DNA of 64,000 nt from Cenococcum geophilum (GCA_050273025.1 CP158635.1:17608001-17672000); one strand, 5' to 3'. Positions 6,161-56,100 are shown, counted from the first letter of the stretch. Translations and numbers: made by a program. Notes: generated from the sequence alone by a model not told the origin.

Positions 6161-9100
6161 AGATACACCACACGCATACCTTTGTAACAGTTTGCCAGGG
6201 AGGATATTCATCTCGGACTTTCTTTTAATCGAATCCTAGTCTTTCGTTTAGCTAGTTCCCGCTGTAAGGCGGCCCCTACGGCCCACCGAACGAAGCCCCG
6301 GAGCCCTAATGGCTGCTTTAACCCCTAAACGCGTATCAGCAACACCACCTCTAGACCCGCTAGTAGCTCCACTAAGACGTACAAAGAAACCAAGCGCGAA
6401 GGTGCAAGAGGCCCAGCAGTCGCTAAGGACACGAGCCTAAATATTAGCATAGTTTAAATAGCAGACAACCGCACTATAAACCAGACTATAAGCTACACAG
6501 TATATACTACCTCTATTCCCTACAGTAAGAGTCTCTACCTTACCCGAACGTAAAGGAGGAGGTATTAATTATAACGAATTTTATTAACTTATCGAAAGCC
6601 TTAAAGAAACTATAGTATAGTAGAGCAATATTATTACAAACCAGAATAGCATTATTGAGAGCATTAGAAATAACCTTATAGACATTAAATCGGAACAGCG
6701 AAGCCTTAAAAAGCAAAACGCCGAACTCTAAAAGGCCATCTAGTCCTTATAAGCGCAACTAAATACTCCCTTAGCTCCAATATAATTATAGGCATTAGTA
6801 GCAGCCAGTGGAGGTATAGCAGGGTTAGAGATAACCTTGCCATAAACGATAAGCGCTAGGAACCCTAAGGAACCTAATTAGTAGCTAGTAATAGACGTTA
6901 GCTAAGCGGGTTTAGAGGCAATAGAGAGGGTAGCTACTACTAAAGCAGTAAAGTAAACTATTGCGTAAGGTATAAAGGATATTAAGGGGCTTACAGGAGC
7001 TATACTTAAGGACTTCTGCGTATAGCGAACAAGCGACAGCGCGAGCATTATTAGATTCTCGGTGGAAAAAGATAAAGAAGCTACGTTTAGGCAAACAACT
7101 GCTTAATAGCTTAAACCGCATATCCCTAGGGCGAGGCTTGTCGGACCTAAGTAGTATACAGTTAAGGCGGACTGGGTTAAAGTACCTTTAGCGATAGACA
7201 TTAACAGCGGAAAAGTAAGTAAGTTAGCTATAGAGCGCTTTAGGGTAGAGAATAGGGTAGAGGTATGCATAATAAGATAGCTAGGACAACCAAGGCCGCG
7301 CGGCTAGCACGCGTCGGTGATTATTAAAGTGGCAGTAAAGGAGGATATAGAGAAGCTGCTTACGTCGGACAACGTATTATTTGGGGGAGGCGCGATTATT
7401 ATATCACCATTTAAGGAGCAACGCACCCCTATAGCATGCTATAAATGCAGAAGGTTTGGACATAGGGCTAGAGACTATACGCGACCTAATACGTGCGAAA
7501 TGTGTGGGCGGGAAGGCCATCTCCGGTATAAGACGGTGAATCTACACTGCGTGAACTGCTAGGGTCCTCACCAAGCCTTATACTGTAAATGCCTAGCATA
7601 CAGGAAAGAGATGGACAGGATTCTTGTACGACAGCGCTATAAATAGAGAACTTTAGATCCTTTAGGCGAATATAAAGAAGTGTAGGGAGGCGCAGCATGC
7701 GCTATATAATAACGAAGCGCTGGCGGACTTCTACTTTATTCTAGGCCAGGAGCCTTACTGCTTTCTCTTAGATAGGGAAGTGGTGCTGGCTGGCTTAAAT
7801 CCCTAGTGGATGAGGTTCGTCCCAATGGGCAGGCAGCAGCGGTATCCCCTAGTTAGGTTATATATCTGGGCATCTAAAGAGCTGGTAGCTACACAGCTGT
7901 AGGTAGATTTAGCAGACATTATGGCGGTGGTAGCGCACGTTGGCTAAAGAAGACTTATAATTGTGTTGGTATATATTCTAGATAGATATTTAAGGAGAAC
8001 CAAGGAAGAGAACCTAGAGGAGCTCTCTAGCAGACTAGAGATAATTAATAGGCTAATCTAGGGTGAACTATTACGCGACCTATATACTAAGGTAGTAATC
8101 GCAGGTGACTTTAATCGGCATAATCCACTATAGGGAGGAAGTTATATTAGTACTATATTAACGTAGGAAGAAAGCGCGCTAATTATTAACTTTATGGCGG
8201 ACTGGTTACTCTAGAGCCTACTTCTAGTGGGAATACCTACGTTTAAAAGCGACGCGGGGCGAATATTAACAATTGACCTTATGCTTGTAACCCCGGGCCT
8301 AGCAAGTGAATTAGCAAAGTGCGCTATCTAGGAGTATAAGTACAGATCAGACTATAGAGCTATCTACACTAGCTTCTGGGTTGATATAGACACGCAGGAG
8401 AGCTAGGAGAGGCTGCTTATTAAGAATGCAAACTGGGATAAGATACGAGAAGACGTGGAGCGATAGAAAGAGATGGGATTCCCTATAGAAGATATAGACG
8501 AAATGGTTAACTGCCTTAATAGGTGGGTTAACAAAGCCCTTAAAGTATACTGCTAACGGGCCAGACTATTACCGTATATGAAAAGATGGTGGAACGAAAA
8601 CCTTATAACGCTGAGGAAGTTATACATATACTAGAGAAATAGGAATAGCGTAATGTAGAGGTAAGGAAGGGATGACCCTAAGCTATATAATGTCGTAGTA
8701 AGAGCGAAGAAGCTCTTCTATAGGACTATTTAGCGACATAAGAAGCTCCATTAGGACAAATTCCTTAGTAATAGTGACAATATATAGAAAGCATTAAAAT
8801 ACCTTAATCCGCAGGCTATATCCGCGTTCGCTAGAATACCACTAATTAAGAAGGATAAAGGATAGGGAGAGGTTATTACGGAGAACCACAATATTGTAAG
8901 AGAACTATTCCAGGTATTCTTTCCGGTCCCGCCGCCGTGCGAATAAGAGGAGGAAGCTATAACTAGCTATAACTAATTGCCATAGGAGCCTATCGCCAAA
9001 CACGAGGTTAAGGCAGCTATATTTAGGGCTAGCCCAGATAAGGCTCCTAGAAGGGACGGCCTACTAGCCAGGGTATAGTAAGAGCTGTGGCCCGTACTAA

Positions 9101-11886
9101 GTAGTGAGATTACTACTCTCTTTACCAAATTACTTAAGACAGGAAAGGTACCCTAGGAATGGAAGGTAGTAAAAATTATACTACTGTAGAAGCTAAAGCG
9201 GGGGGACTATACAGTAGCAAATAACTATAGGCCGATCTCCCTCCTCTTAACGCTAGGAAAAGCACTTAAATCGCTAGTGGCGGAGAGGATAGCATACCTA
9301 GTAGAGGAACACAGCCTACTACCTAAGACGCACTTTGGAGCTAGGAAGCAAAGGTTAACAATATATACGCTATTATATCTCTATAAGGACGTATTTAGAG
9401 CATAGAGAGAAAAGAAGACGCTGTCTCTAGTATTATTTAATATTAAGGGTGCGTATAATAATATAGCCATAGAGCCGGAAATTAGGAGATTATAGCAGCG
9501 TTAGATACCTTAGACGATTATATAATAGGTACAGGACTTTTATACAAACCGTTAAGCCTATATCCTAGTTAACGGATACATATTAAAGGTACAGGCGCTT
9601 CCGCAGGCGGGTCTCCCGTAGGGATTAGCACTAGCCCTAATACTCTTTCTATTCTTTAACGCGGATCTTATATAAAGCGTACCCAGAAATAGTAGCTCCA
9701 TAGCCTTCGTTAATAACTACTTGGTATAGATTATAGGCCCTACGGCGGAGGAAAACACGCAGATTATCTAGGGCGAGATTATACCAATGCTTAAGAAATG
9801 GGAGAGGACCAGTGGAGCCCAATTTAAAGTAAAGAAAACGTTATTTATCCACCTTACTAGATATAAAGAAGTAGGCAGGGATGCTACCACGCCGCTCTAA
9901 TTTAAAGGAAAAGGGATCCCCCCAACTTAGGAAGTTAAAATCCTTAGGGTAATCCTTAATAAGGAGCTACGGTTTAAGGCGCACCTAGTAAATAAGGCAG
10001 GCAAAGCCACTAAGGTGGCGCTAGCGTTGCGCAGATTAAAGGGACTGTAGTTTAAGAGCGTTAAGCAGCTAGCTAAGAGCTCGGTTTTACTAGTAGTAGA
10101 CTACGCGTCGCTAATATAGTACCCGCTTGCGATATAAGAGTTAATATAGCTCCTCTAGTAGGCGCAGAGGATTATAGCATAAGCTATTATTAGGGGGTTT
10201 TGCTCTGTTGTCCTGCTAATAGCGGAAGTAAAAGCTGGCTTGCTCCCTCTTAAGCAAAGGCTGTATAACCAGGCTATCGTGTTCTAGGTGTTAATCTATA
10301 AACTAGGTAAATTATATCCTTATTAGATAATTTAAAGATAGAGGCTCTATAAACGGCACCGATTGCCACTCTAGAGGATAGTAGAGATGTGCGAGGATAT
10401 CTAGGTAAATAGGGTGCTGGAGGTTAAACCGTATACATGCCTACCGTAGGTGGCTAAGCCTAATGTAGTAATATATAAGGACGAAGATTATGCTTAAGCT
10501 ATTATTAAAGACTATAAGCTAGGGCAGGTTAATATATACGTTAATACATCGGTGCGCAATAGTAGGGCAGGAGTTGGTGTGTATGCTACGCTATCTAAAG
10601 CAACGCTTTTAAAAACGGTGGCGAGCTCTAATTAGGCCAACGCCTACCTTATAGAGCTTCTAGCAATCAGCGAGGCAGCTAACTGGCCGTGGGACCCTAC
10701 GTGCACGGCTGTTGACTAAGTAGGTTTTCCAATACCTGCATCTAGTATAAGAATATTCTCCGACTTATAATTAGCGTTGCTGTTAGTATAGAGCTAAAGG
10801 GCTGGAGCCTACCAGGAAATAGTCGTAGAGATCTTAAAGAAGCTTTGGCTAAATAATGTCACGCTATACTAGATTCCAGGCCACTTAGGATTTATAGGAA
10901 ATAAGAAGGCCGACAAGCTTACCAAAGCAGCAACAAGACTAAAGAGCGAGGAGCCACTATAGAGAGACGGCCTCCTATAGTACCTTATAACGTAAGCGTT
11001 AAAAAGAGTTAAGATAATAATAGGACCGCTTCTATCGGGAAGATCTAATACGGGCAAGTTTACAAGAAAGATTAACGCAGCACTCCACCTTAGAAAGGCT
11101 GCAGGATTATACCAGCAGCTAATTAGCTTAGAAGCTGCTATCCTTACGCAGCTATAGACCGGTAAGTTATTTCTAAAGGAATATCTCCACAAAATTAATG
11201 CATCAGAGACGGCGTTATACAACTACGGGCTTATAGAGTTAATACAGCACTTCCTCTTCTTTTGTAGGAGGTGGGCGCAGCAAAGGATTAAACTAAGAGA
11301 GCAACATAGAGATTAATTTGGGGATCTATTATATGTATTAGGAGGCTACTTACGCAGACAAAAAGGAGGCAGGAATATTAACGGCCTAATTAAGCGCTAG
11401 AAGCCAGATATTAGCGTAGTTAAAGCTACAATTAAATTTATAAAAGAGACTAGACGTTTATACCTAAGCGTATAAGATATAGAGAGTATAGAAGCCGACA
11501 TTAATAAGCGAAGACTCTTAAGAATTTCTCCTCTAATTATCTAACCGAATACACCGCGAGCCTCCTCTATACGTGCCTTTACTGGTACATTGCCAATCAA
11601 GAAGCGCACAACGCTAGAATAGCCCTGCGGACACAAGGCATCGAAAACTACTTACTTAGGCTCGCCTCTAAACTCTAACTTTCTTTAATAGTAACACATT
11701 ACTTTCCTTTATTTTTTCCTTAGTTGAGTATAGTGTTAGGTAATAGATATATAGTTCTTATAGTTGGCTTCTAAACTAGAGCAAGCATGTTAATGGTAGG
11801 AAGTATTTAGTTAGCGCTCTGTAACGGCCCATACCCTAGATGGTGCATGGCCATAATAGAATATACATACATACATATATACATAC
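6161..11886 (+). mobile_element. Full-length Tad1-like LINE (ORF1 with CCHC knuckles; ORF2 with APE endonuclease, RT, RNase H and C-terminal zinc finger), RIP-inactivated
   Basis: ORF1 knuckle CYKCRRFGHRARD (7317-7562). ORF2 motifs AGDFNRHNP (~8101), SDYRAI (~8347), KAPRRDG (~9040), NYRPISLL (~9220), GLP.G..LA.ILF (~9610). (ATAC)n tail ends at 11886. 13-bp TSD atagtctagtaca (6148-6160) versus gtagtccagtgta (11887-11899) differs only by RIP-type transitions. Confidence 0.92.
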
Positions 11887-26182: not shown

Positions 26183-27275
26183 TAGCCTTTATATAACGCC
26201 GCTTAGAGAATATTACTATACTATCTACCTTATATATTAATATTAGCGCCCTTACTAAGGAGCAACTTAATAATCTTGTTATAGTCTCCATACGACGCTG
26301 CTTAGAGCGCGTTGCCATAGTCTCTACCTTGTGTATTAATATTGGCGCCCTTACTAAGGAGTAGCTTGACGATCTTGTTGTGGCCTCCATATGACGCCGC
26401 CCGAAGCGCATTGCCGTAGTCTCCACCTTGCGCGTTGATGTCAGCGCCCTTACTAAGGAGTAACTCAATGACCTTGTCATGGCCTCCATACGACGCTGCC
26501 TGGAGCGCGTTGCTGTACCATCCGCCTTGCACGTTGACGTCGGCGCCCTTTCTGAGGAGTAGCTTAACGATCTTGTCGTGACCTCTATATGACGCCGCCT
26601 GGAGCGCGCCGCCGTACCCTCCACCTTGCGCGTTGATGTCGGCGCCCTTGCTGAGAAGTAGCTCAACGATCTTGTCGTAGCCCTCACACGACGCCGCCTG
26701 GAGCGCGCTACTGTACGACCCACCTTGTGCGTTGACGTCGGCGCCCTTGCTGAGGAGTAGCTCAACGATCTTGTCGTAGCCTCTATACGACGCTGCCTGG
26801 AGCGCGTTGCCGTACCACCCACCTTGCGCGTTGACGTCGGCGCCCTTGCTGAAGAGTAGCTCGATGATCTTGCCGTGGCCTCTATATGACGCCGCCTGGA
26901 GCGCATTACGGTACGGCCCACCTTGCGCGCTGACGTCGGCGCCTTTGCTGAGGAGTAGCCCGGCGATCCTGTCGTGGCCTCCATGCAACGCTGCCTGGAG
27001 CGCGTTGCCGTAGTCTCCACCTTGCGCGTTGATGTCGGCGCCCTTGCCAAAGAGTAGCTCGATGATCTTGTCGTGGCCTCTATATGACGCCGCCTGGAGC
27101 GCGTTACCGTACCGCCCACCTTGCGCGTTGACGTCGGCGCCCTTGCTGAGGAGTAGCTCGACGGTCTTATCGTGGCCTCCATGCAACGCCGCCTGGAGCG
27201 CGTTGCCGTAGTCTCCACCTTGCGCGTTGATGTCGGCGCCCTTGCCGAGGAGTAACTCAATGATCATATCATGGC
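26183..27275 (-). repeat. Tandem array of ~11 99-bp ankyrin-coding units (last one beyond the stop and heavily RIP'd)
   Basis: Repeated GHDKxxELLLSKGADxNAQGGxYGNALQAASYx units with 99-bp periodicity. Confidence 0.92.
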
Positions 27276-30111
27276 CTCCTTCCGATGCATGATGTATAGC
27301 TGCTACACCATCGTTGTCTCTTTCGTTAACATCACAACCTTGCTCTAATAGCCGACCGACGGCGTCTAATAACCCAGTAGAAGATGCATGATGCAAGGCA
27401 TTTTCAGGGGGAGTGGAACCTGCCCAACGAGTCCGGATTGAGGATATCTCGTAGAGTCGAGTTGCATATATGATTCCACCTGCGGACAAAGGGAACGAGC
27501 CCGGATTTTTGTACGTATAACCCCCGAATAGCCTAAAATGCACACGCATTTTTCTGAGTTGAAAAATCGAACTTAAGAATGCACTGTCTCGCGAAAGGAC
27601 ATCATCAACCAGGGGCAGGATATTGTCAGGAGCTCCGCATTCAAAAAGATGATAGTCAAAGAATTGAGCTGCGTAGCCAGCAAATGGGTACTTATAATGG
27701 ACCTCGAGTAGCTTGGATGGCGCGGTTTGAAGGTATCTTAGGCAAATTCGGGAAAGCTGTTGATGTGCGGATGCAGGATTCGCGATCGAGTCCCAGGTGC
27801 CTCCATATATGGATCCGCGAAGGCCATCTGTAAAGAACTCTTGCACTGAGAAGTGTATCGGGCGGATCGTTCCGAGCCGATCATAATTAGCTTCCTCGAG
27901 CAGACCGCAGCAAGCATCGAGAATCACCTCGACCGGGTAGTCTCTTGCGTCCCGCTCGCTTTTATCTCCAGCTGTTGCAAGTGCTGCCTGTAATGTTCGA
28001 GCTTCCAATGGTTCTTTGGCGTATATGACACACATCAAACTGTTTATCGCAAGATCTCTCATGTAAGGGATCTGACATTCGATACGATGGACTAATCGGT
28101 CGTAGGTGTCGTCCAGGCCATTTGGTAGCTTTTCCAGTGCATCTTCAATCTGCTGGTCGTTTTTCGTCCGACTACTCCAACAAAGACTTTCCAGTTGCAG
28201 ATTGACCCAGAGGAACCTATTTCATAATAAGAATAAAGGGATCTATACCGTATGCAGAACCTATAAACTTACATTCCATCTGCCTTGCTTACCAACGTAT
28301 CGATGATTTTTCCTTGTAGCTTGTCGCTAGTTAAATAGAGCCTCTTCCCATTCCAACCTCCAGGGAGCTTTGCTTTTGCAACCTCATCGCGAACGTAGAG
28401 CGCGATGTCTGCTGCAACATTCTTTGCTTCGATCTGGACTGTGGAAGTTTTGCCCTCGAAGGCTTCGACAATGTCTGCCTCCCTTCTACTCGTGATAAAG
28501 ATTTTAGCGCATTGCAGTTCTGCGACGACTTTGTCAATGAAGCCAATGATACGATGCCTTTCGTGCTCGGGACACTCATCAAGAGCGTCAAGTACAATAA
28601 AAACTTCCCTGAAGGGTTTGGCAAGAGAGACGAATGAATCCGGATTACTTGCAGTCAAGTTGCTGTGGGAATCGTGCCTCAACCTTAAGAGCTCACTAGG
28701 GATACAGTCCTTCTTCTGACACAGCTGTTTAATTAGAGCCCCTACAACAATGCTGGAGTCGCCTAACTCGGGCTCGCGGTAGTTGTAGTAAGCAAAAGAT
28801 ATACCGACGTTATCATGCAGGGCGAATTCTGTAGTGATGTGTTCCAAGACGTTTGAGCTTCAGAAAATATTAGAAAGTGGAACTTGACGGATTTGCCGTA
28901 TGGGGACATACGCAAGAACGGACTTGCCTGCACCAGCTACGCCTAAATTGAGCTAATTCTGTACGCGGAGCCCGTGGATAAAACTCACGTTTGCCATAGC
29001 ACCAAAGAAGGGATGATTGCTGACTATTCAACCACCCTTCAAACTCCGTCCTTTGGAGTAACCAGGCCCCTGTGCCTCCGTGTTTCTTTGCGTATATGTC
29101 ATCGTGGACTTTCTCAAAGTCGACTTTGGAAATCCAGTCAAGGAATTCTGATCTTTCTTTCCCTGTGTTGAAATTAGCGTAATGGCTCCACTTCTGAGAC
29201 ACTTCACCCGGACCCCATCTTCTTCTACAATTTCTCGTTGAGGGATGAGAAGTCCTTACACCCACTATGGCATCCCGTGCTTAAATAACATGCCTCACTA
29301 TAAGTAACTTACTTTTATCTGCTTCTCGCGAGAAATTTAACAACGATGCTTGGGCAGAGTGTTGCAGCACGCCTAGGTGATGATCTAATTTCGCTTTCAT
29401 TGAACCGAACTCTGACTCAAATGGCACCCATTGGTGGCGGAAGAATACCCTAAACGACGTCAATTTCCGTCGGTGCCCATGAGCATTCATAAAAATTGTA
29501 TAGGCCTTCCTGCAGAACTCAATCAAATCGCCATAGACCATCGCAACCATTTCCTGCAGCGATTCTATGTCATGAGAGGCCGTTGCATAATCTGCGAGAG
29601 GTGCGAGATAATCCTCAAACTCGCAAATCATATCAGTCAATTTTTTGAAGAAACACACAAAATTTATGGCGATGTCGAGAACAACACGCACGGCTCCGAC
29701 AACGATACACGAAGTCTCAGGATTCGACTGTATACCGATGGCGACCCCTCCCATGAACCGATTGAGGAGTTCCAGGAACTTAGCGATACGTTCGGCTTGA
29801 GGGCGAAAAGGGGAGCTGTGCTGATGCTGCTCATCAAGGCTTCGAGCTATTGCTAGCAGGTTGTTTTCGTCCATCGTCTTCGCAGCCACTCGGAAGGCCT
29901 CCTTTTCATTATCTGGAATCTTGTCAAGCTGCCTTTGTATTGCCAGTGCAAGGGCTCGGTTTCTCAGCACTGCCGTTGTCGTAGTAGGTGCCTGCGAGGG
30001 CGGCGATGCAGAGGATGCGGCCGTTGGGGTCTTAGGCCGCGATTTGGGTTGAGCATGCCGCGTGCCTCGCTGCAGCCGAAATACCGTGGAGAGCAAATCA
30101 AGTTTGGGCAT
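26302..30111 (-). CDS. Fungal NLR: N-terminal helical domain, NACHT, winged helix, ankyrin repeats; exons 30111-29313, 29162-28989, 28936-28912, 28857-28273, 28216-26302; C-terminus shortened by a RIP-type stop
   Basis: Splicing gives LLWCYGKPGAGKSVLAS (Walker A), FIVLDALDEC (Walker B), KIFITSR, ADGMFLWV, IHFSVQEF, then ~10 near-identical 33-aa ANK units. All four introns are GT-AG. Confidence 0.9.
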
Positions 30112-43974: not shown

Positions 43975-46840
<2,866 letters not shown>

Positions 46841-46879
46841 GTCGTAGTATAAGCTAGATATAGAAGGACAGAAACATAA

Positions 46880-47103
46880 AATGTAGTCGGTTAGGAGGTA
46901 TAGGTAGGAGAAGGTATCCTTAAGGGTATTCGCTCATTGAGATCGGCTTGTTGTTCGCTTGGGTGTAAACGTCCTACTTGCACCTCCTTCGCAAAGTGGA
47001 TCGTAGCTTTGACCGCGCTAATGTCTGGGAAACGCCACCTCGACAACCCTGTGGCCATAGCGGCTCGGCCGTCCTCCCTGCTAGCGCGATCAAGGTGTTC
47101 GTC
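46880..47103 (-). repeat. LINE ORF2 3'-end relic; 46993-47103 is the left arm of an inverted repeat
   Basis: Minus strand reads PDISAVKATIHFAKEVQVGRLHPSEQQADLNER, matching the end of LINE ORF2 at 11401-11550 (PDISVVKATIKF.KET.RL..S...EADIN.R) including the following ctaaccga.taca. Confidence 0.8.
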
Positions 47104-47447
47104 CGCTTCTCAAAATATGAGCATAATCAGTCTAGTCACTTGCAATTCGCCTGATGCATCCCAGCCCTTACCTCGCCACACTTGGGGCTATGCAATCAGC
47201 CGCACCCTACCCCAACCTGAGAGCGTTCCAACTTCCTCCTCACACAACCAGAGATATAGTAAGGCATAGCAGTAATCCTGCACTATCGCTTTCAGATACA
47301 ATTATATGGTATAGCTTAGCGTCCTATCCTCCTGTAGGACCTTCTTCGGACGAGCGATTTGTCCTGCATGGCTCTTAGGCTACCGCGTTTGAACAGGACT
47401 GGGATCTAATCCCTGCCGCTTGACCCCGTCCAGATCCATGCGAAGCC

Positions 47448-50400
47448 ATGCGTCTTTTGCGATACAGCAAAGACATCGGCGATCTCAGTCTTACTCAGTT
47501 TGGCGACGATGCCACTCCTCCCTATGCGATACTTTCTCATACGTGGGGAGCAGATACCGAGGAGCTCACCTTTGAAGACCTGACAAATGCCACTGGTACG
47601 AATAAGCCGGGCTACGAGAAGATCCGATTCTGTGGCGAACAGGCGGGACAAGATGGCTTGCAATACTTTTGGATAGACACTTGCTGTATCGACAAGACAA
47701 ACAAGGCTGAACTCTCCCAGGCTATAAAGTCTATGTTACGCTGGTATCGCAAGGCTACTCGTTGCTATGCCTATTTATCGGATGTTCCTAGCCTTTCCTC
47801 TAACACCAATAATGAAGTAAATCCAAGGCAATGGGAATTGGATTTCCGGAAAAGCAAATGGTTCACCCGGGGTTGGACGCTCCAAGAGCTCCTTGCCCCG
47901 TGTTTAGTCGAATTCTTCTCCCAGGAACGTAAGCGACTTAGTAATAAATGTTCTCTAATGTAGCAAATCTATAAGATAACAGGAATTCCCAAGTTAGCGC
48001 TTCAAGGAGCTCCTTTATCGCAGTTTAGTGTTAACGAGAGATTATTGTGGATAGAACACCGCCAGATTAAGCTCGAAGAAGATAAAGCGTACTCGCTGCT
48101 GGGCATTTTTAACGTCTACATACCGCCTATCTATGGCGAAGGGACAGCGAGGGCGTTCAAACGGCTCATAGACGAGATCGAAAAGCTGGAGAAATATATG
48201 CAAGACTTACGCCTTACCGACCCACGTGATAACAAGAAGCGTATTAAGGAAATCAAGGGTGGACTACTGGAAAACTCGTATCGCTAGATCCTCAAAAACT
48301 CCAACTTCCAATAATGGCGTAACAACCAGCAGAGCCAACTGCTATAGATTAAGGGCGATCCCGGCAAAGGCAAGACGATGCTGCTCTGCGGTATCATTAA
48401 TAAGTTGAACAAGTCCATGGCTAAGACGGATTATCTATCCTACTTCTTCTACCAGGCCACTGACTCGCGCATTAACAACGCCATAGCTGCGCTGAGAGGC
48501 CTGGTATACTTACTTGTCAATCAGCAGCTGTTGCTCGTCTTATATATACGGAAGAAGCACGATCATGCAGGCAAAGCGCTCTTTGAGGATGCGAATGCCT
48601 GGGTTGTATTATCCGAGATCCTTACAAACATCATAGGACCCGAGCTTAAGCAGCACGTATCTAATTATTGACGCGCTCAACAAATGCGTAGCCAACCTGC
48701 CGAAACTGCTAGACTTCATCGTCCAGAAGTCGTTAGGATCTCCTTGTATCAAGTGGATCGTCTCTAGCCGCAACTGGCCCGACATCGAGGAACAGCTAGA
48801 TAGGGTGGGACATAAGGTGAGGCTGTGCCTCGAGCTGAACGCAGAGTTCATTTCCGCAGCCGTCAGCATCTATATCTAGCATAAGGTGCTCCAGCTAGCG
48901 CAACGGAAGAGATACGATAAGAAGACACGAGACGCTGTGCTGGACCATCTATCCGCGAATGCGAATAATATCTTCCTCTGGGTAGCTTTGGTCTGCCAGC
49001 ACCTTGAGAAAGTCTTACAATAGAACGCACCTACTAAGCTAAAGGCGTTTCCGCCTGGGCTCGACTCTCTTTATGAGAGGATAATGCAGCAGATACGCAG
49101 CTCGGACGATGCTAATGTCTGCAAGCGGATACTGGCCTTGATCGCGATTGTCTACCGACCCGTTACGCTGATGGAGCTGACATCTCTCGTTAAGGTGCTT
49201 GAAGATATGGCCGATAACCTAGAATCGTTATAAGAGATTATCGGCCTTTATGGCTCGTTTCTAGCTCTTTAAGAAGGTACCGTCTATTTTATACATTAGT
49301 CCGCGAAGGATTTTCTACTCACGCAGGCATTCAACGATGTATTTTCGTCTGGGAGAGAAGAAGTCCATCATGGGATTTTCTTGAGATTACTCTAGGTTAT
49401 GTGCAGCATGCTACGACGAAATATGCACAGTCTGCATGCCCTAGGATATCTTATCGAGCGGGTCGAACTGCCTACCCCAGATCCATTAGCGGCGGCACGG
49501 TATTCGTGTATCTACTGGGTTGATCACCTCTGCGACTGGAACCCCAGCTCTTCTGGAGACTACTTGGCCGACCTGCAGGACGGGGGCGGCATTAATACGT
49601 TTCTGAGAAGGAAATACCTCTATTGGCTGGAGGCTCTTAGCCTTTGCAAGAGCATGTTGGAGGGAGTAGTCTCCATGGCGAAACTTGAGGCTTTAACCTA
49701 TGTAATACCTCGGCGCGATTTGCTCTCTATACTACATGCTAATATAACGTAGGAGAGAGCACGCATATTGACTTTATTTGAGCTAGTTCGGGATGCGCGT
49801 CGATTTATCATGTATTATAAGGGGGCGATAGAGAACGCTCCCCTTTAGGTATATGTATCAGCACTTGTGTTCAGTCCCACTCACAGCCTAATCCGTAACC
49901 ATTTTAAAGAAGCCCCTAGCTGGGTTATAATAAAACCGCCTATGAGAGACAAATGGGGTGCCTGCTTGCAGATGCTCGAGGGCCATAGCGACTCCGTAAC
50001 CTCCGTGGCCTTCTCTACCGACTCGGCACAGCTGGCGTCGGCGTTATTTGACAAGACGGTTAAGATCTGGGACGCTTATAGCGGCAAGTGCCTACAGACA
50101 CTCGAGGGCCATAGCGACTCCGTTAGGTCCATAGCCTTCTCCGCCGACTCGACCCGGCTGGCGTCAGCGTCATACGATATAACAATTAAGATCTGGGAAG
50201 CGCACAGCGGGAAGTTCCTGCAGACGATTAAGGGCCATATGGATTGGGTTAATTCTGTAGCCTTCTCCGCCAACTCGACACGGCTGGCGTCGGCGTCATT
50301 CGACGGGACGGTTAAGATCTGGGATGCGCACAGCAGCGAGTGCCTGAAGACGCTTAAGGGCCATAGCAGCTCCGTCCACTCCGTAGCCTTCTCCGCCGAC

Positions 50401-51747
50401 TCAACACGGCTAGCGTCGGCGTCATACGACACAACAATCAAGATCTGGGAAGCACACAGCGGCAAGTGCCTGCAGACGCTCAAGGGCCATAGCGGCTACG
50501 TCAATTCCGTAGCCTTCTCCGCCAACTCGACCTGGCTGGCGTCGGCGTCCGAGGACAGCACCGTCAAGATCTGGGATGCGCACAGCAGCGAGTGCCTGAA
50601 GACGCTTAAGGGCCATGGGAGCTCCGTCCACTCCGTAGCCTTCTCTGCCGACTCGACCCAGCTGGCGTCGGCTTCATACAACAGCACGGTCAAGATCTGG
50701 GACGCGCACAGCGGTGAGTGCCTGCAGACGCTCGAGGGCCATAGCGGCTACGTCAGCTCGGTGGCCTTCTCTACCGACTCGACCCGGCTGGCGTCCGCGT
50801 CCGAGGACAGCACGGTCAAGATCTGGGACGCTCACTGGGACGCTCAGAGCAGGAAGTGCCTGCAGACGCTCGAGGGCCATAGCGACTCCGTTAGGTCCGT
50901 GGCCTTCTCCGCCGATTCGACCCGGCTGGCGTCGGCGTCATACGACACAACAATCAAGATCTGGGAAGCACACAGCGGCAAGTGCCTGCGGACGCTTAAG
51001 GGCCATCGGGATTGGGTCAATTCTGTAGCCTTCTCCGCCAACTTGAAACGGCTGGCGTTGGCGTCGGCGTCGGGCGACGGCACAGTCAAGATCTGGGACG
51101 CGCACAGCGGCGAGTGCCTACAGACGGTCAGGGGCCATAGCGACTCTGTCAACTCGGTGGCTTTCTCCGCCGACTCGACACGGCTAGCGTCGGCGTCGAG
51201 TGACAGGATGGTCAAGATCTGGGACGCTCACTGGGACGCTCAGAGCGGGAAGTGCCTGCAGACGCTCAAGGGTCATAGCAGCTCCGTCAGGTCCGTGGCC
51301 TTCTCCGCCGACTCGACCCGGCTGGCGTCCGCGTCCGAGGACAGCACCGTCAAGATCTGGGACGCGCACAGCGGGGAGTGCCTCCAGACGCTCAAAACTA
51401 GTCAACCACTTCATGACATATCATTCGATGCTACTGGCTCTTATCTTTACACTGAAATTGGTGCTATTGTTATTAGCGCAACATCCCTTTCAAATACTAT
51501 AACGGCTGTTACAGAACCCCAACATGCTCATTATCACTACGCGGCGCTGGGTTCGGATAAGGCATGGATAACATATAATTCGGAGAACCTACTGTGGTTG
51601 CCCTCAGAATATCGTCCATCATGCTCAGCAGTATCAGGGAACACAATTGGCATCGGTGTCGGATCTGGAAAGGTGTGGATGTGTAACATTCAGCTTGACG
51701 AATCTCAAGGATTTAGGAGTACTAGTAGAGAGGGAAGTATTGGTTGA
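47448..51747 (+). pseudogene. HET-NACHT-WD40 (HNWD, HET-E-like) NLR inactivated by RIP-type stops and a frameshift; HET ORF (47448-47963) and WD40 ORF (to 51747) remain open
   Basis: HET motifs YAILSHTWG, YFWIDTCCIDK, WFTRGWTLQELLAP. Walker A GDPGKGKT (48354-48377), WIVSSRN, FLWVALVC. TAG/TAA stops at W/Q codons (e.g. 47961, 48285, 48344) and a frameshift at ~48635. Intron ~49702-49752. 11 WD40 repeats, then LLWLPSEYRP. Confidence 0.92.
49966..51396 (+). repeat. 11 highly similar 126-bp WD40-coding repeats
   Basis: LQTLEGHSxxVxSVAFSADSTRLASASxDxTVKIWDAHSGxC units. Confidence 0.95.
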
Positions 51748-51913
51748 TGTTACAACTTACTGTATATTTTAATTATTCTCAACTTCATAGAGGGGTCCTA
51801 GGATGGGTGGGAATTTATAATCAAATAATTTGCCACATCTAATCTTCGAGAAGTTTATTACTTAGTGACAAGGTAGCTTACCTATGAGGATTTGCCACGC
51901 TATGGTCAAGAGA

Positions 51914-52102
51914 GACGAACACCTCGATCGCGCTAGCAGGGAGGACGGCCGAGCCGCTATGGCCACAGGGTTGTCGAAGTGGCGTGTTAGCGCTCTGTAA
52001 CGGCCCATACCCTAGATAGTGCATGGCCATAATAGAATATACATACATACGTTAAAGTGGCGTTTCCCAGACATTAGCGCGGTCAAAGCTACGATCCACT
52101 TT
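51914..52102 (+). repeat. Right arm of the inverted repeat (pairs with 46993-47103), interrupted by a 65-bp LINE-tail insertion
   Basis: After removing 51986-52063, it is the reverse complement of 46993-47103 with 2 transitions in 111 bp. Confidence 0.95.
51986..52050 (+). mobile_element. 65-bp 5'-truncated copy of the 3' end of the LINE at 6161-11886
   Basis: Matches 11810-11874 with one transition and ends in (ATAC)n. 13-bp TSD gtcgaagtggcgt (51973-51985) versus gttaaagtggcgt (52051-52063). Confidence 0.93.
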
Positions 52103-53127: not shown

Positions 53128-56100
53128 TGTCACAGAGTAAGTATAAGCGACGATAATATATAGCAGAGTAGATATTATTAAGCTATGTATATAAACTGTA
53201 TAATAAGATTAAGACGTTGCGTAAGGAAAGAAGGTAGGAAAACGGAAAGAACGGGTATATATTATTAACTTAGTTGCTTAGTTAATATATATATAGAGCA
53301 GAATATAGCGGAATTTAGTAAAACTTAGTGGAATATGGCAGAATATAGCAGATTGCCGTTAGATTGCTATAGATCGCGGCAAATTACGGTCTTATAGATG
53401 GTAAAAGCAGGTAGGCGTGTATAAGGTATTATAGGGGTGTCCTATAACAGTATCCCCCCTTTATACTTAAGCTTCTGCGAGATAGGGCTATAGTAGTTTT
53501 AGGTAGAGTTTGTAAAAGTCTTCTACGGCTTATATAAGTCCTATAGAGTTAACAGGTTCCCATAAGGACTTAGTAAAGCCGCTCCATTTTATAAGATATA
53601 TATATTAGTATTTCCCCGAGATGCGAATGTGGCTGGCCAAGACAGACACCAAAACACGTAATACTGCTATGCCCCCTACGCACCAATCGAGAAATAATAC
53701 TCTTAGCAGCTGGCACAGAGAACTATAATACACTGCTCTTAACATAAAAAGGCCTTAAGGCGGTCACCCAGTGGCTTATTAGTTAAAATGTGCTAAATCA
53801 GTTCCGGGTTGCAAGGGAAATGGTAATAGAAGGCAAGGGGGCAAGCAGTAGGTGCCCCCTAGTAACTCTACAGTAGTAGAGTAATAGTTTGTAATACTAG
53901 CGCGTCCGTAGGCTTATTACGGCAGCAGTGGTTCCTAAGGAGGTTAAATAATAAAGTAGTAGAGCACTATAGGCGACTCGTAGGCGCTAAGTAGGCGAGT
54001 CCTAAAAGGCGGGGAGATAGATCACGGGGTTTTCTCATTTTTCTTAAATAGAGTTTTCTCCCTATATGTAAATAAGGAGTAGTCCGCGTGGGCCCAATAG
54101 GGATCCAAATCGGACGTTAAGCAATGAATTATTATTATTATATTAGTGTTTCCGTTTATTATACTTAATATTATTAATTCTTTTAATAAAGTACTTGTTC
54201 TTACCATCTACTTTAACTGGTAGGGGAGGGTTTTATATCTGTTTGGGCAGGGCGTCTAATATAGGGGTAATAGGGCGGAGGACTAACGTATAGAATACGG
54301 GGTGGATTTTAACCGTATTAGGGAGCTCTAGTTAGTAGGCGTAAGAGAAAATAACCTTCTTAATCTTATAAGGGCCAGCGTTTTTCTAATTAAGTTTCTT
54401 AGTAGGTTATTTTATATTTAGGTTTCTTATATCTAGCTAAATAAAGTTACTAATTTAGTAGGCTAGTGCTAGGGTTTATTTCTTATTTGCTGCGGCTTTA
54501 TAGATAAATTAGGCCTATATTATTTTATTAGTAAGAAACTATTATAGTTCCTCTATCTTCTCTATAAATTTATTTACTTTTATAATTTATAAGGCGTAAT
54601 AAGTAGGGCGAGGAATATTACTAAAAGGGTTAAAACCTATTTATGGGTGCTAGCTATAATTAGCTAGGAACGGGGAGACCTTTATAGTTTTTAAGACGGA
54701 ATTATTTATAGTAAACTTGGCGAATATAAGCTAGTTAATCCAGTTATCTTATAAATATAACGTGTATATCCAGATATACTATTCTATTATAGCGTTTATA
54801 TATTCCGTTTAACCGTCTATTTTTAGGTAATATATAATAGACAGCAGTACTTTAATATAGAGTTAGGTAGTTAGTTCTTTCTAAAATATAGAGATAAACT
54901 AGCTGCCTTTATTGGAGATAATTGTTTTAGGGAGTCTGTAGAGTTTCTATATATAATCTAGAAATAGTTAGGCAATAGTAGGCGTTAATATATTAGGGCA
55001 GGCGATTAAGTACCTTATCTTAGATAGTTAGTCTATAACTACTATAATATTTATATAGCCTTTACTTATAGGGAGGTCAATAATAAAGTTAATTAAGATA
55101 TCCTTTTATCTTCGGTCCGGAACAGGTAGTGGCTTTAGGAGCCGTTATACGTCTTATATAAAGCTTTAGCTTATCAGTAGATATAGCAGCTAGAGACGTA
55201 CCTTTGTGTTATATTATATATATTTAGCTAATAGTATTCTTATTAGAGCAGTTTTAGGGTTTTTCCTTAGCCCGGGTAGCCGGCTACTAGTAGATTATAT
55301 ATATATTTAAGAAGCTTAAGCTTAAGTTTATTATAGTTAGGTATAACTAGGCGGTTTTAGTAATATAAGCGGTTTCCATAGGCTTTATATTTACTTAGAG
55401 AAATCTTTTAAAGCGTCTAATGCCATCTTATATTAGCTTAAGCGCCTCTTAAATAAACTCGTTATTTAGGTATTTATTAACTATAATCTATTTAATTAAT
55501 TAATTAGTTATTTTAAGGACGTATACTATAAGATCTTTAGTAGGAGGGTTAAATAGTTTAGGGTGAAGTAGGGTTTAATTTCGGTAAAAGCGCGCTTTTT
55601 TTAGGGCTAGTGTGTCTTATAAGCGTTGGATTACGGCGTTAGGCTTTTAACCTTAAATGCCTAGGTAGTATATAATTAAGAATTAGAAATAAAACAGATA
55701 TTCTAACTAGTAGGCCTAATAATAACTTAGCTGTTTTGTGGTTATAAAGTACTATAGGTTCTTATAGTTACTAAGGACCTTAATTAGAAATCTAACGCCT
55801 TCTAGTTTGGGTCGCCATTATTTAAAATATTTAATAATAGCTAACAATTCCTTATTATAGATCTTGTAGTTATATTTAGCTAGGCTTAGTTATTTTAAGA
55901 AGTATACTATAGGGTATAATACTTTATCCTTATTATATTAAGACAGGATGTCTCTAGTAACGTAGTTAGATAAGTCGGCTTTTATAACACTTATTTGGTT
56001 TAGGTTAAAGTATTAAAGTATAGGCGTAGTAGTAAATATAACCTTTAGATAGGTAAAGGCCTTCTTATATTCCTTATTAAAGATAAAGACTTTATCCTTT

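Follow-up and report, generated by a model that had tools for sequence, protein, structure and literature searches.

An inverted LINE fragment around a HET-NACHT-WD40 pseudogene of Cenococcum geophilum has the look of a local rearrangement scar

A stretch of 64,000 nt of the Cenococcum geophilum genome (hereafter the window) was analysed, in which a HET-NACHT-WD40 (HNWD-type) gene lies between two near-identical arms in inverted orientation. The arms are not the termini of an element; each is the same 111 bp from the 3′ end (ORF2 C-terminus) of a LINE present in many copies. The repeat has the look of a scar left when LINE fragments rearranged locally, not of the ends of a mobile or switchable cassette. 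Our preferred, still tentative, explanation is that an ancestral unit of gene, 3′ flank and LINE tail was split by an inversion of ~4.9 kb, with one breakpoint staggered by 111 bp. Had the arms been the termini of a vehicle that copies receptors, they would have offered a mechanism for the expansion of fungal NLR genes, as an earlier, sequence-only reading of the window had proposed. The evidence points instead to an ordinary LINE-fragment rearrangement scar around a dead gene copy.

The left arm (46993-47103, LINE sense on the minus strand) encodes DEHLDRASREDGRAAMATGLSRWRFPDISAVKATIHF and is the inverted partner of 51914-52102, from which it differs by two transitions once a 69-nt insert and a 9-nt target-site duplication are removed from the latter (109/111 identical, with abrupt ends). 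A repeat search recovered the pair as two segments, 47032-47103/51914-51985 (72 nt, 97%) and 46993-47038/52057-52102 (46 nt, 100%; 46/46 match), and BLASTN aligned the left and right arm segments with E values of 1e-30 and 3e-19. The transitions fall at 47092 (A, against C at 51925 in the right arm) and at 47039 (C, against A at 51978). The right arm, on the plus strand, comprises an inner 72 nt (51914-51985), which carries both transitions and ends with the first 9-nt copy of the duplication, and an outer part (52055-52102) formed by the second copy (52055-52063) and a further 39 nt. The repeat, its coordinates and its two transitions are thus as the sequence-only reading had described them. 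An insertion in the right arm had also been recognised there, but was sized at 65; the extra bases number 78, i.e. the 69-nt insert plus the 9-nt duplication copy. Elsewhere in the 64-kb window BLASTN found no second pair of arms, and no target-site duplication lies directly outside the arms, where the sequences ...ccttcgc (before the left arm) and atatgta... (after the right arm) are unlike. Short-read contigs of run X1, which may be the sample behind the window's assembly, span both inner junctions without differences (records 47062-48778 and 51333-51955), and a run X5 record (51560-51985) has one other letter.

The insert within the right arm (51986-52054, plus strand) is a severely 5′-truncated LINE 3′ tail of 69 nt, with the target-site duplication AAGTGGCGT on both sides (51977-51985 and 52055-52063). 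By BLASTN, 65 of its 69 nt match 11810-11874 in the window at 64/65 positions and end in (TACA)n. Loose ends in run X5 before 51986 read AGCAAGCATGGTGGCAGCAGGAAGTATTTA, which is the un-RIPed form of the sequence preceding 11810. The insert, which is later than the formation of the repeat, thus has the truncated 5′ end, 3′ tail and duplication of a LINE insertion. Since it is an endonuclease-type insertion inside one arm, the LINE has cut this site.

Translation and tblastn bore out the earlier claim that the arms point outward and encode a LINE ORF2 C-terminus. Outward of the left arm the LINE continues on the minus strand (46846-46992), through the end of ORF2 (...AKEVQVGRLHPSEQQADLNERIPLRIPSPTYTS, last codon 46894-46896) and into the start of the 3′ UTR. 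The reading frame extends past the arm for 33 further codons to a natural stop (ORF open 46894-47109), nhmmer matches this side to a RIPed LINE copy (11404-11583) out to 46846 (E 1.9e-9), and tblastn of the metagenome ORFs P0125, P0126 and P0131 covers the continuation. The RIPed copy, a related LINE used as reference (8800-11880, plus strand), has an RT domain (Pfam RVT_1, E 4.6e-15), RNase H-like and Cys-motif regions, an arm-like C-terminus, a 3′ UTR and a (TACA)n tail. It was translated over the RT-to-C-terminus region and contains 50 in-frame stops, all TAG or TAA. Its C-terminus (11359-11526, within 8800-11562) was also matched by tblastn of P0124 (E 7.7e-5) and P0128 (E 1.6e-8), and seven clusters of related LINE ORFs were present in metagenome contigs. 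Read depth in run X1 was ~1210 over the left continuation and 147-1210 across the arm bins, against ~50 in the gene. At an identity of at least 93% the left LINE piece has ~24-fold depth, and many copies in the genome match it. Neither a target-site duplication nor a 3′ end could be defined for this fragment. In the right outer flank nhmmer detected no LINE sequence beyond 52116, although it did recognise the heavily RIPed copy at 11.4 kb, and the remainder of the right LINE tail was not found in the window up to 64000.

Between the arms lie, on the plus strand, the region from the left arm to the start codon (47104-47447, GC 0.51), the gene (47448-51747) and its 3′ flank (51748-51913), which is contiguous with the right arm. 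GC content is 0.46-0.63 inside the arms and 0.27-0.39 outside, so the GC-balanced island of the earlier reading stands. The RIP indices of the flanks are 1.5-2.0 (TpA/ApT) and 0.3-0.5 (composite index), compared with mild values of 0.95-1.02 and 1.04-1.19 in the gene; these flanks are TE wreckage. The gene contains a HET domain (~47523-47786, E 6e-15), a NACHT/NPHP3_N domain (~48279-48617; E 2e-17 for NPHP3_N, and E 1.9e-5 for NACHT at 25 bits, under the cut-off of 26.7) and 11 WD40 repeats (~49960-51400), which the repeat search recovered as 8-11 highly similar copies of 126 nt. Its best protein matches (70-77% identity) are from Dothideomycetes and not from Podospora. It had been described as an immune gene, but 11 exonic TAG/TAA stops and a frameshift near 48636 interrupt its frame, and it is therefore a pseudogene of the HNWD-type family. 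Reading through the gene frames passes 13 stop codons, every one of them TAG or TAA, and the last 626 codons (49867-51747) are open. The gene is thus dead, with a RIP-type pattern of damage, yet it is still transcribed, on the plus strand and towards the LINE tail. A run X7 RNA contig begins at 47244, and an intron present in the genomic copy (49702-49752) is spliced in RNA. Both the transcription and the apparent splicing of this stop-ridden NLR pseudogene were seen in a single run of a root metatranscriptome.

Only one other locus was found. On a metagenome contig, L001, the same arm adjoins the same 3′ flank, here belonging to a diverged WD40-NLR gene, and one BLAST alignment joins L001 2967-4170 to positions 51984-50721 of the window. 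On the two sides of this right-hand junction the arm is 83-86% and the flank 73% identical, ts/tv is an ordinary 0.6-1.7, and ~10-12 sites separate L001 from the arms. In an anchored comparison of the right inner flank with that of L001, 0-5 of 2000 random pieces reached the score under plain scoring at all six k (20-150); under RIP-aware scoring the figure was 0-11/2000 at k 30-150, but 154/2000 at k 20. Judged from these alignments, the right-hand junction is old, inherited and common to both loci rather than a fresh truncation. The earlier argument, which held two independent LINE truncations at one base to be unlikely, is thereby lost. The common inner end base holds for the identity of left with right arm, but not beyond it, since the right inner flank is homologous to L001 across that base. 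The L001 gene is 5′-truncated and the outer part of its LINE is degraded; its arm is single, with no inverted partner within 5.3 kb of sequence. Two diverged loci have thus kept an NLR gene and a LINE tail joined at one and the same junction. The left and right inner flanks are not alike, as at best 205/2000 random pieces score as high. The first 10-30 nt of the left inner flank bear a weak, transition-rich likeness to the NLR 3′ flank of L001 (1-7/4000 random pieces at k=10-30; RIP-aware, with tests picked post hoc).

Four types of junction are found at the arms. The left arm is contiguous with the outside LINE tail and the right arm, as in L001, with the gene 3′ flank, which is the arrangement expected of a staggered break. 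Under the inversion that we tentatively favour, an old LINE fragment would have followed immediately on the 3′ flank of an HNWD-type NLR gene, an arrangement that L001 still has. A single local rearrangement would then have inverted the gene-bearing segment of ~4.9 kb, the breaks at one end being staggered by 111 bp or repaired there with a template switch. Fill-in would have placed the 111-bp piece at both ends in opposite orientation, so that the left copy would be joined to the LINE tail and the right copy to the gene 3′ flank, and the remaining two junctions would be new. The 69-nt LINE tail would have entered the right arm afterwards, with its 9-nt duplication. We infer both the single inversion as the source of the second arm and the direction of the change; as no un-inverted allele or relative was seen, the polarity is drawn from L001. 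Some observations sit less comfortably with the inversion. Its second breakpoint would fall exactly at the border of GC-normal and RIPed DNA, a mild coincidence that counts against it, and the many genome matches of the left LINE piece at 93% identity or above are somewhat unexpected if that piece dates back as far as the junction that L001 also has. Of the three options raised by the sequence-only reading, a staggered-break inversion nevertheless emerges as the best single explanation, and a TIR-like element with NLR cargo is left without support.

The main rival, unlikely in our judgement though ahead of the others, is a patch of gene conversion or repair between an old right LINE fragment and a younger, 5′-truncated left insertion in inverse orientation, which would have arisen independently and of which ~111 bp would have been homogenised recently. 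It would account for a right junction that is old (73-86% to L001, with its ordinary ts/tv) next to arms that are 98% alike, and for the depth of the left LINE piece. Moreover, identity falls abruptly on both sides of the arms, with weak, transition-rich likeness just outside. On the left this is the likeness to the L001 flank given above. On the right, 57/3000 random pieces score as high as the outer flank against the LINE continuation at k=40, with no significance at k=20, 80 or 120, and tblastn pairs FICKGGKL with FAKEIGRL there. Such residual likeness beyond both of the supposedly new junctions is more in keeping with a conversion patch than with junctions that are new. The motif RAAMA is also common to both arms, with RPAPA in L001, P0125, P0128 and P0129 and RPALA in P0127 (four of the six metagenome ORFs fetched span this site). 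However, the patch requires two events and leaves the origin of the older inverted pair to be explained, recombination would have had to work with very short and poor flanking homology, and every one of the sites that distinguish L001 from the arms must have been converted. The failure of nhmmer to recognise the right outer flank as LINE also argues against it.

It is improbable that the two arms are an unlinked, coincidental pair, the left being an independent, 5′-truncated copy of a young and abundant LINE and the right another copy that was later interrupted at 52102, by an inserted TE or by a deletion. The LINE is multi-copy and was recently active, as its read depth and the 69-nt tail with an intact 9-nt duplication indicate, and both the seven related ORF clusters and the TE wreckage of the flanks agree with this. 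Against it stand the left fragment, for which no duplication or 3′ end can be defined, and the rest of the right tail, missing up to 64000. Moreover, because the right junction with the gene flank is old, a 98% identity to a young copy would go unexplained without conversion.

We consider it very unlikely that NLR genes here form units tagged by a LINE tail, either because read-through transcripts are copied by the LINE machinery, in a manner resembling 5′ transduction, or because recombination uses the tail as a handle. Gene and tail would then be duplicated as one unit, and the left arm would be a short retrocopy of a read-through transcript. The gene-flank-LINE junction common to two diverged NLR loci, the transcription towards the tail and the 10-30 nt of flank-like sequence that the left inner flank may hold past the arm are all in its favour, as is the RIP-type damage, from which it follows that the gene was once duplicated. 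Plain inheritance, by segmental duplication or speciation, may explain the shared junction, the genomic copy retains its intron, and for the unit, known from one extra locus, no tail or duplication is definable. A broader proposal, that HNWD-type NLRs in this fungal lineage travel with a LINE 3′ tail at a fixed junction, that this tail is a handle with which the LINE machinery, through read-through transcripts, or LINE-to-LINE recombination copies, inverts or relocates them, and that the 111-nt pair is a footprint of this which could still flip the segment, is most unlikely.

Least credible of all is a TIR-like, non-autonomous element built from LINE sequence with NLR cargo, or a cassette that the arms would flip by recombining: a near-perfect repeat does enclose just the gene with short flanks, the L001 arm likewise adjoins a WD40-NLR fragment and recombination between 111-nt inverted repeats is physically possible, but the left outer end, which lies inside a continuing LINE ORF with LINE homology to 46846, largely refutes it, and the arms lack a target-site duplication, the arm of L001 is single and the gene carried is a pseudogene with RIP-type damage. 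The eight ORFs scanned, which were picked from 14 of at least 150 aa, contained no transposase or recombinase family. No strand-changing joint was listed in the contigs of four runs, which could hardly show one, as 31-letter words are too short for contigs assembled from them to span a 111-nt repeat.

The locus is a clean, small and mildly useful case, from a fungus with active RIP, of a LINE fragment that has been duplicated in inverse orientation on the two sides of a segment the size of a gene. The NLR-LINE tail junction kept in two loci and the transcribed, stop-ridden NLR pseudogene are of similar, mild use.

NLR genes are frequent cargo of Starships, and a gene bracketed by repeats recalls these elements as well as cargo TIR transposons and Pack-MULE-like capture. 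A class II, TIR-type cargo transposon or MITE-like element fits poorly, as the inverted repeat is present but the left outer end is no terminus and there is no duplication. The locus differs from all three systems in these respects and in the lack of a transposase or captain gene in the ORFs scanned. No Starship captain tyrosine recombinase (DUF3435) was found in the eight long ORFs scanned of 14, in a window that may be too small to contain one, and the present segment is far smaller than a Starship.

The gene itself resembles the HNWD/NWD family of Podospora anserina and RIP-damaged paralogues (PMC1805685, PMC2873952) in its HET-NACHT-WD40 architecture, its highly similar 126-nt WD repeats and its RIP-type damage. 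It differs from that family in that its closest proteins are from Dothideomycetes and the present copy is a pseudogene.

LINE-1-induced breaks are reported to give rise to small inversions and inverted duplications (bioRxiv 10.1101/2024.12.14.628481). The present locus shares with these, and with twin priming, a LINE at a small inversion or inverted duplication and LINE segments that point outward from their 5′ ends; the endonuclease-type insertion with its duplication in one arm is a further likeness. In twin priming, as cited in that work, the inverted parts are adjacent, non-overlapping pieces of one LINE copy, whereas here the same 111 nt occurs twice with 4.8 kb of non-LINE DNA between. 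Since the right junction is older than the repeat, the event was not the LINE's own integration.

A further close parallel is with inverted duplications at inversion breakpoints, for which staggered breaks are an established mechanism; in Drosophila they are described for 17 of 29 inversions (Ranz et al. 2007, PMC1885836). Compared with the inversions described there, the present case is very small (a 4.9-kb segment and 111 bp duplicated) and lies in a RIPed TE region of a fungus, the duplicated piece is a LINE fragment and the un-inverted ancestor was not seen in a close relative. In both, a sequence that was formerly single, as is proposed for the present locus, is now found inverted at the two ends of a segment, without target-site duplication or transposase, and one copy keeps the outside neighbour while the other keeps the inside one.

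The two arms flanking the HET-NACHT-WD40 (HNWD) gene (47448-51747) form the inverted repeat that the sequence-only reading had claimed, and a repeat search of the window and BLASTN both recovered it as described. The left arm (46993-47103) and the right arm (51914-52102) match in inverted orientation over 72 nt at 97% (47032-47103 against 51914-51985, BLASTN E = 1e-30) and over 46 nt at 100% (46993-47038 against 52057-52102, E = 3e-19). Both mismatches between the arms are transitions (n = 2), and GC content is 0.46-0.63 between the arms against 0.27-0.39 beyond them. At 189 nt, the right arm equals the 111 nt of the left plus 78 nt, of which 69 are an insert (51986-52054) and the remaining 9 repeat AAGTGGCGT, which stands at 51977-51985 and 52055-52063. 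The insert ends in (TACA)n and 65 of its nucleotides match 11810-11874, within a related and heavily RIPed LINE (the 11.4-kb copy, 8800-11880), at 64 of 65 positions. In sequencing run X5, loose contig ends immediately ahead of 51986 carry AGCAAGCATGGTGGCAGCAGGAAGTATTTA, the stretch upstream of 11810 in un-RIPed form. The insert is a severely 5′-truncated LINE tail with a 9-nt target-site duplication; it entered the right arm after the repeat had formed and shows that the LINE was active at this locus. The metagenome contig locus L001 (5.3 kb) carries at the same arm position (~2890-2966) a (TA)n-rich insert flanked by the 13-nt direct repeat CGCCATCTCCACA, and the common position may mark a preferred LINE endonuclease cutting site. 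A far outward extension of the repeat was rejected, since 25 of 158 controls reached the same score in RIP-aware local alignment of the outer flanks (700 nt each), RY-alphabet BLAST being too noisy for use. Within the NACHT-linker coding region, 49096-49121 is 77% like 47002-47027 and 49123-49146 is 75% like the reverse complement of 47085-47108; these likenesses are probably due to chance, though their adjacency is odd.

Translated outward, both arms give DEHLDRASREDGRAAMATGLSRWRFPDISAVKATIHF. The RIPed element at 8800-11880 contains 50 in-frame stops, all TAG or TAA, and is recognised by Pfam RVT_1 (E = 4.6e-15). Both the arm and the sequence after the left arm can be aligned to the C-terminus of this element. 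Metagenome ORFs P0124 (E = 7.7e-5) and P0128 (E = 1.6e-8, also spanning the inner arm) matched this C-terminus by tblastn, and nhmmer matched 47028-46846 of the left side to 11404-11583 (E = 1.9e-9). Both arms are therefore the outward-facing C-terminus of a LINE ORF2, and the earlier assignment is borne out. Queried with the 72-aa left ORF, HMMER returned seven short ORFs at E ≤ 0.001 from the full database (the six looked up are all under ENA), so the arm LINE belongs to a multi-copy family. The depth of run X1 is 147-1210 over the arm bins against ~50 over the gene. Among longer proteins, 32 candidates for an undamaged ORF2 of the LINE were considered, none of them at E ≤ 0.01.

A metagenome scan with the 25-nt arm core recovered one locus, L001, in which the inner 72 nt of the arm are 83-86% identical to either window arm. 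This arm runs unbroken into a homologue of the right inner flank (51748-51913, the 3′ flank of the gene), and from there into a diverged WD40-NLR fragment, through its C-terminus and WD repeats. L001 2967-4170 and window 51984-50721 form one BLAST alignment, and alignment A2 has the same junction. When the right and L001 inner flanks were compared by anchored alignment, 0-5 of 2000 controls scored as high at every k under plain scoring; under RIP-aware scoring, 154 controls did so at k 20 and 0-11 at k 30-150. The transition/transversion ratio across the junction region is ordinary (0.6-1.7), so the junction of right arm and gene flank is old and inherited. No second, inverted arm was found within the 5.3 kb of L001. 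The sequence-only reading had both arms end at the same inner base; since homology of the right inner flank continues in L001, that base marks only the point at which the left arm stops resembling the right, and is not a shared truncation. The left and right inner flanks show no likeness (of 2000 controls, no fewer than 205 reached the observed score in any comparison). The first 10-30 nt of the left inner flank bear a weak, transition-rich likeness to the L001 flank; in post hoc tests with RIP-aware scoring, one of 4000 random pieces scored as high at k = 10 and seven did so at k = 30. A further segment of 525 nt (53614-54138), which lies 1.5 kb to the right of the right arm, shares 85% identity with L001 4413-4927, the sequence next to the truncated WD40 gene; the two have the same orientation but lie on opposite sides of the gene. 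It was rejected as evidence of synteny, as its divergence is RIP-like (ratio 6.8) and the segment is therefore probably a repeat; no other copies occur in the window.

As to the outer ends, that of the left arm is not a terminus: the ORF continues past it for 33 further codons to a stop common to P0125 and P0131. On the right, nhmmer found no LINE match beyond 52116. Anchored alignment of this flank to the LINE continuation (Biopython) gave only a marginal signal, at k = 40, where 57 of 3000 random pieces scored as high; 884, 187, 461 and 1004 of 3000 did so at k = 20, 60, 80 and 120. Inspection of both outer ends revealed no direct repeat flanking the arms. A comparison with the tail of the 11.4-kb copy, meant to place the 3′ end of the left LINE fragment, was discarded (112 of 1000 controls scored as high). 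When 51780-51930 and 46350-46900 were compared for the halves of a split target-site duplication, a single 8-mer came up, with 0.45 nine-mers expected by chance.

At least half of the sampled words are present in 20 of the 24 listed runs, ten of them being on record as RNA; the runs containing such words come from 14 studies. Besides X7, a root metatranscriptome, nine further RNA-labelled runs contain 0.52-0.64 of the words. Contigs or reads of four of the 24 were compared with the window. Contigs of X1, which may be the sample behind the assembly, span the two inner junctions and show no difference from the window, and the right junction is also spanned in X5; an assembly artefact at these two junctions is thereby ruled out. 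No strand-changing joints are listed in the four runs, whose 31-letter-word contigs are unable to bridge a 111-nt repeat and could hardly reveal a switch of orientation. Raw RNA reads of X21 were set aside as evidence on the locus, as 165 of 177 matched in part only and 93% continued into unlike sequence; they derive from paralogues and are uninformative here. Two contigs of single-copy depth join distant sites, one in X5 from 51088 (WD array) to 52057 (outer part of the right arm; side 30) and one in X1 from 47084 (left arm) to 51988 (start of the 69-nt insert; side 25), the latter two sites having TAGCGC in common. Paralogous loci, variants or graph artefacts could account for these joins.

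The sequence-only reading described the enclosed gene as an immune gene. Its domains are indeed present (Pfam HET, NPHP3_N/NACHT and 11 WD40 repeats), and the best homologues are HET-NACHT(-WD40) proteins, 70-77% identical, with Dothideomycete source names; however, the frame contains 4 + 9 TAG/TAA codons. One of these 13 lies at a frameshift near 48636 and another falls on the terminal AG of a 51-nt GT..AG intron (49702-49752) that is absent from one X7 RNA contig through splicing (side 29; to be read with some caution), leaving 11 exonic stops. X7 contigs are identical to the genome over all 11 (47244-48778, 48764-49473 and 49753-50163), and the gene is a transcribed pseudogene. Genome-identical X7 contigs represent it over 47244-51807. 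Rescue of the stops by A-to-I editing was rejected, as X7 contigs over 47244-49473 and 49753-50163 show no other letters and three of the 11 stops are TAA. Several stops stand where the Walker-A region has a conserved W or Q; CpA-to-TpA RIP yields such stops. The flanks have strong RIP indices and the gene mild ones, and RIP damage implies that the gene once had a duplicate. No second, RIPed HNWD copy was found in the window by nhmmer --max (four query pieces, E up to 1), and tblastn of the protein query P0027 on the window returned the gene itself only. A 346-nt RNA contig of X7 (no other letters, depth 150) lacks 129 nt at 51463-51593, whose CT..AC ends equal GT..AG on the minus strand; it may stem from a spliced antisense transcript across the 3′ end of the gene or from an allele with 43 codons deleted. 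At a distance of 17 kb, the minus strand carries another NLR-like gene (26302-30111), with a DUF7708 ORF (E = 1e-6) followed by a 586-aa ankyrin-repeat ORF (Ank_2, E = 2e-70); it shares a GC-normal, gene-bearing block (12-30 kb) with a ribose-5-phosphate isomerase fragment.

Two of the four junctions are continuous (left arm into LINE tail, right arm into gene flank) and two are abrupt (left inner, right outer), the pattern expected from an inversion with a breakpoint staggered by 111 nt. We tentatively favour such an event, in which inversion of the gene segment would have left an arm at both ends in opposite orientation. Inversion with staggered breaks is modelled in PMC1885836, and bioRxiv 10.1101/2024.12.14.628481 reports small inversions and inverted duplications from LINE-induced breaks. 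The main rival, though itself unlikely, is that conversion or repair left a patch shared by an old LINE fragment downstream and a younger one upstream. It accounts better for the weak residual likeness past both borders, and explains why the arm at an old junction is 98% identical to a copy matching many genomic copies, but requires more events and recombination across very poor flanking homology. We consider it improbable that the arms are a coincidental pair of fragments of this multi-copy LINE, and more improbable still that LINE-mediated copying of tail-tagged NLR units produced them. A TIR cassette, given the left outer end and the lack of flanking direct repeats at either outer end, is scarcely credible. 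A full-text literature search, thin enough to leave absence unproven, turned up no account of LINE-derived inverted repeats on both sides of NLR genes, and the term 'inverted repeat' has 0 occurrences in the NLR paper PMC12258605. As read here, the arm pair would be a fresh instance of an already known type of rearrangement scar.
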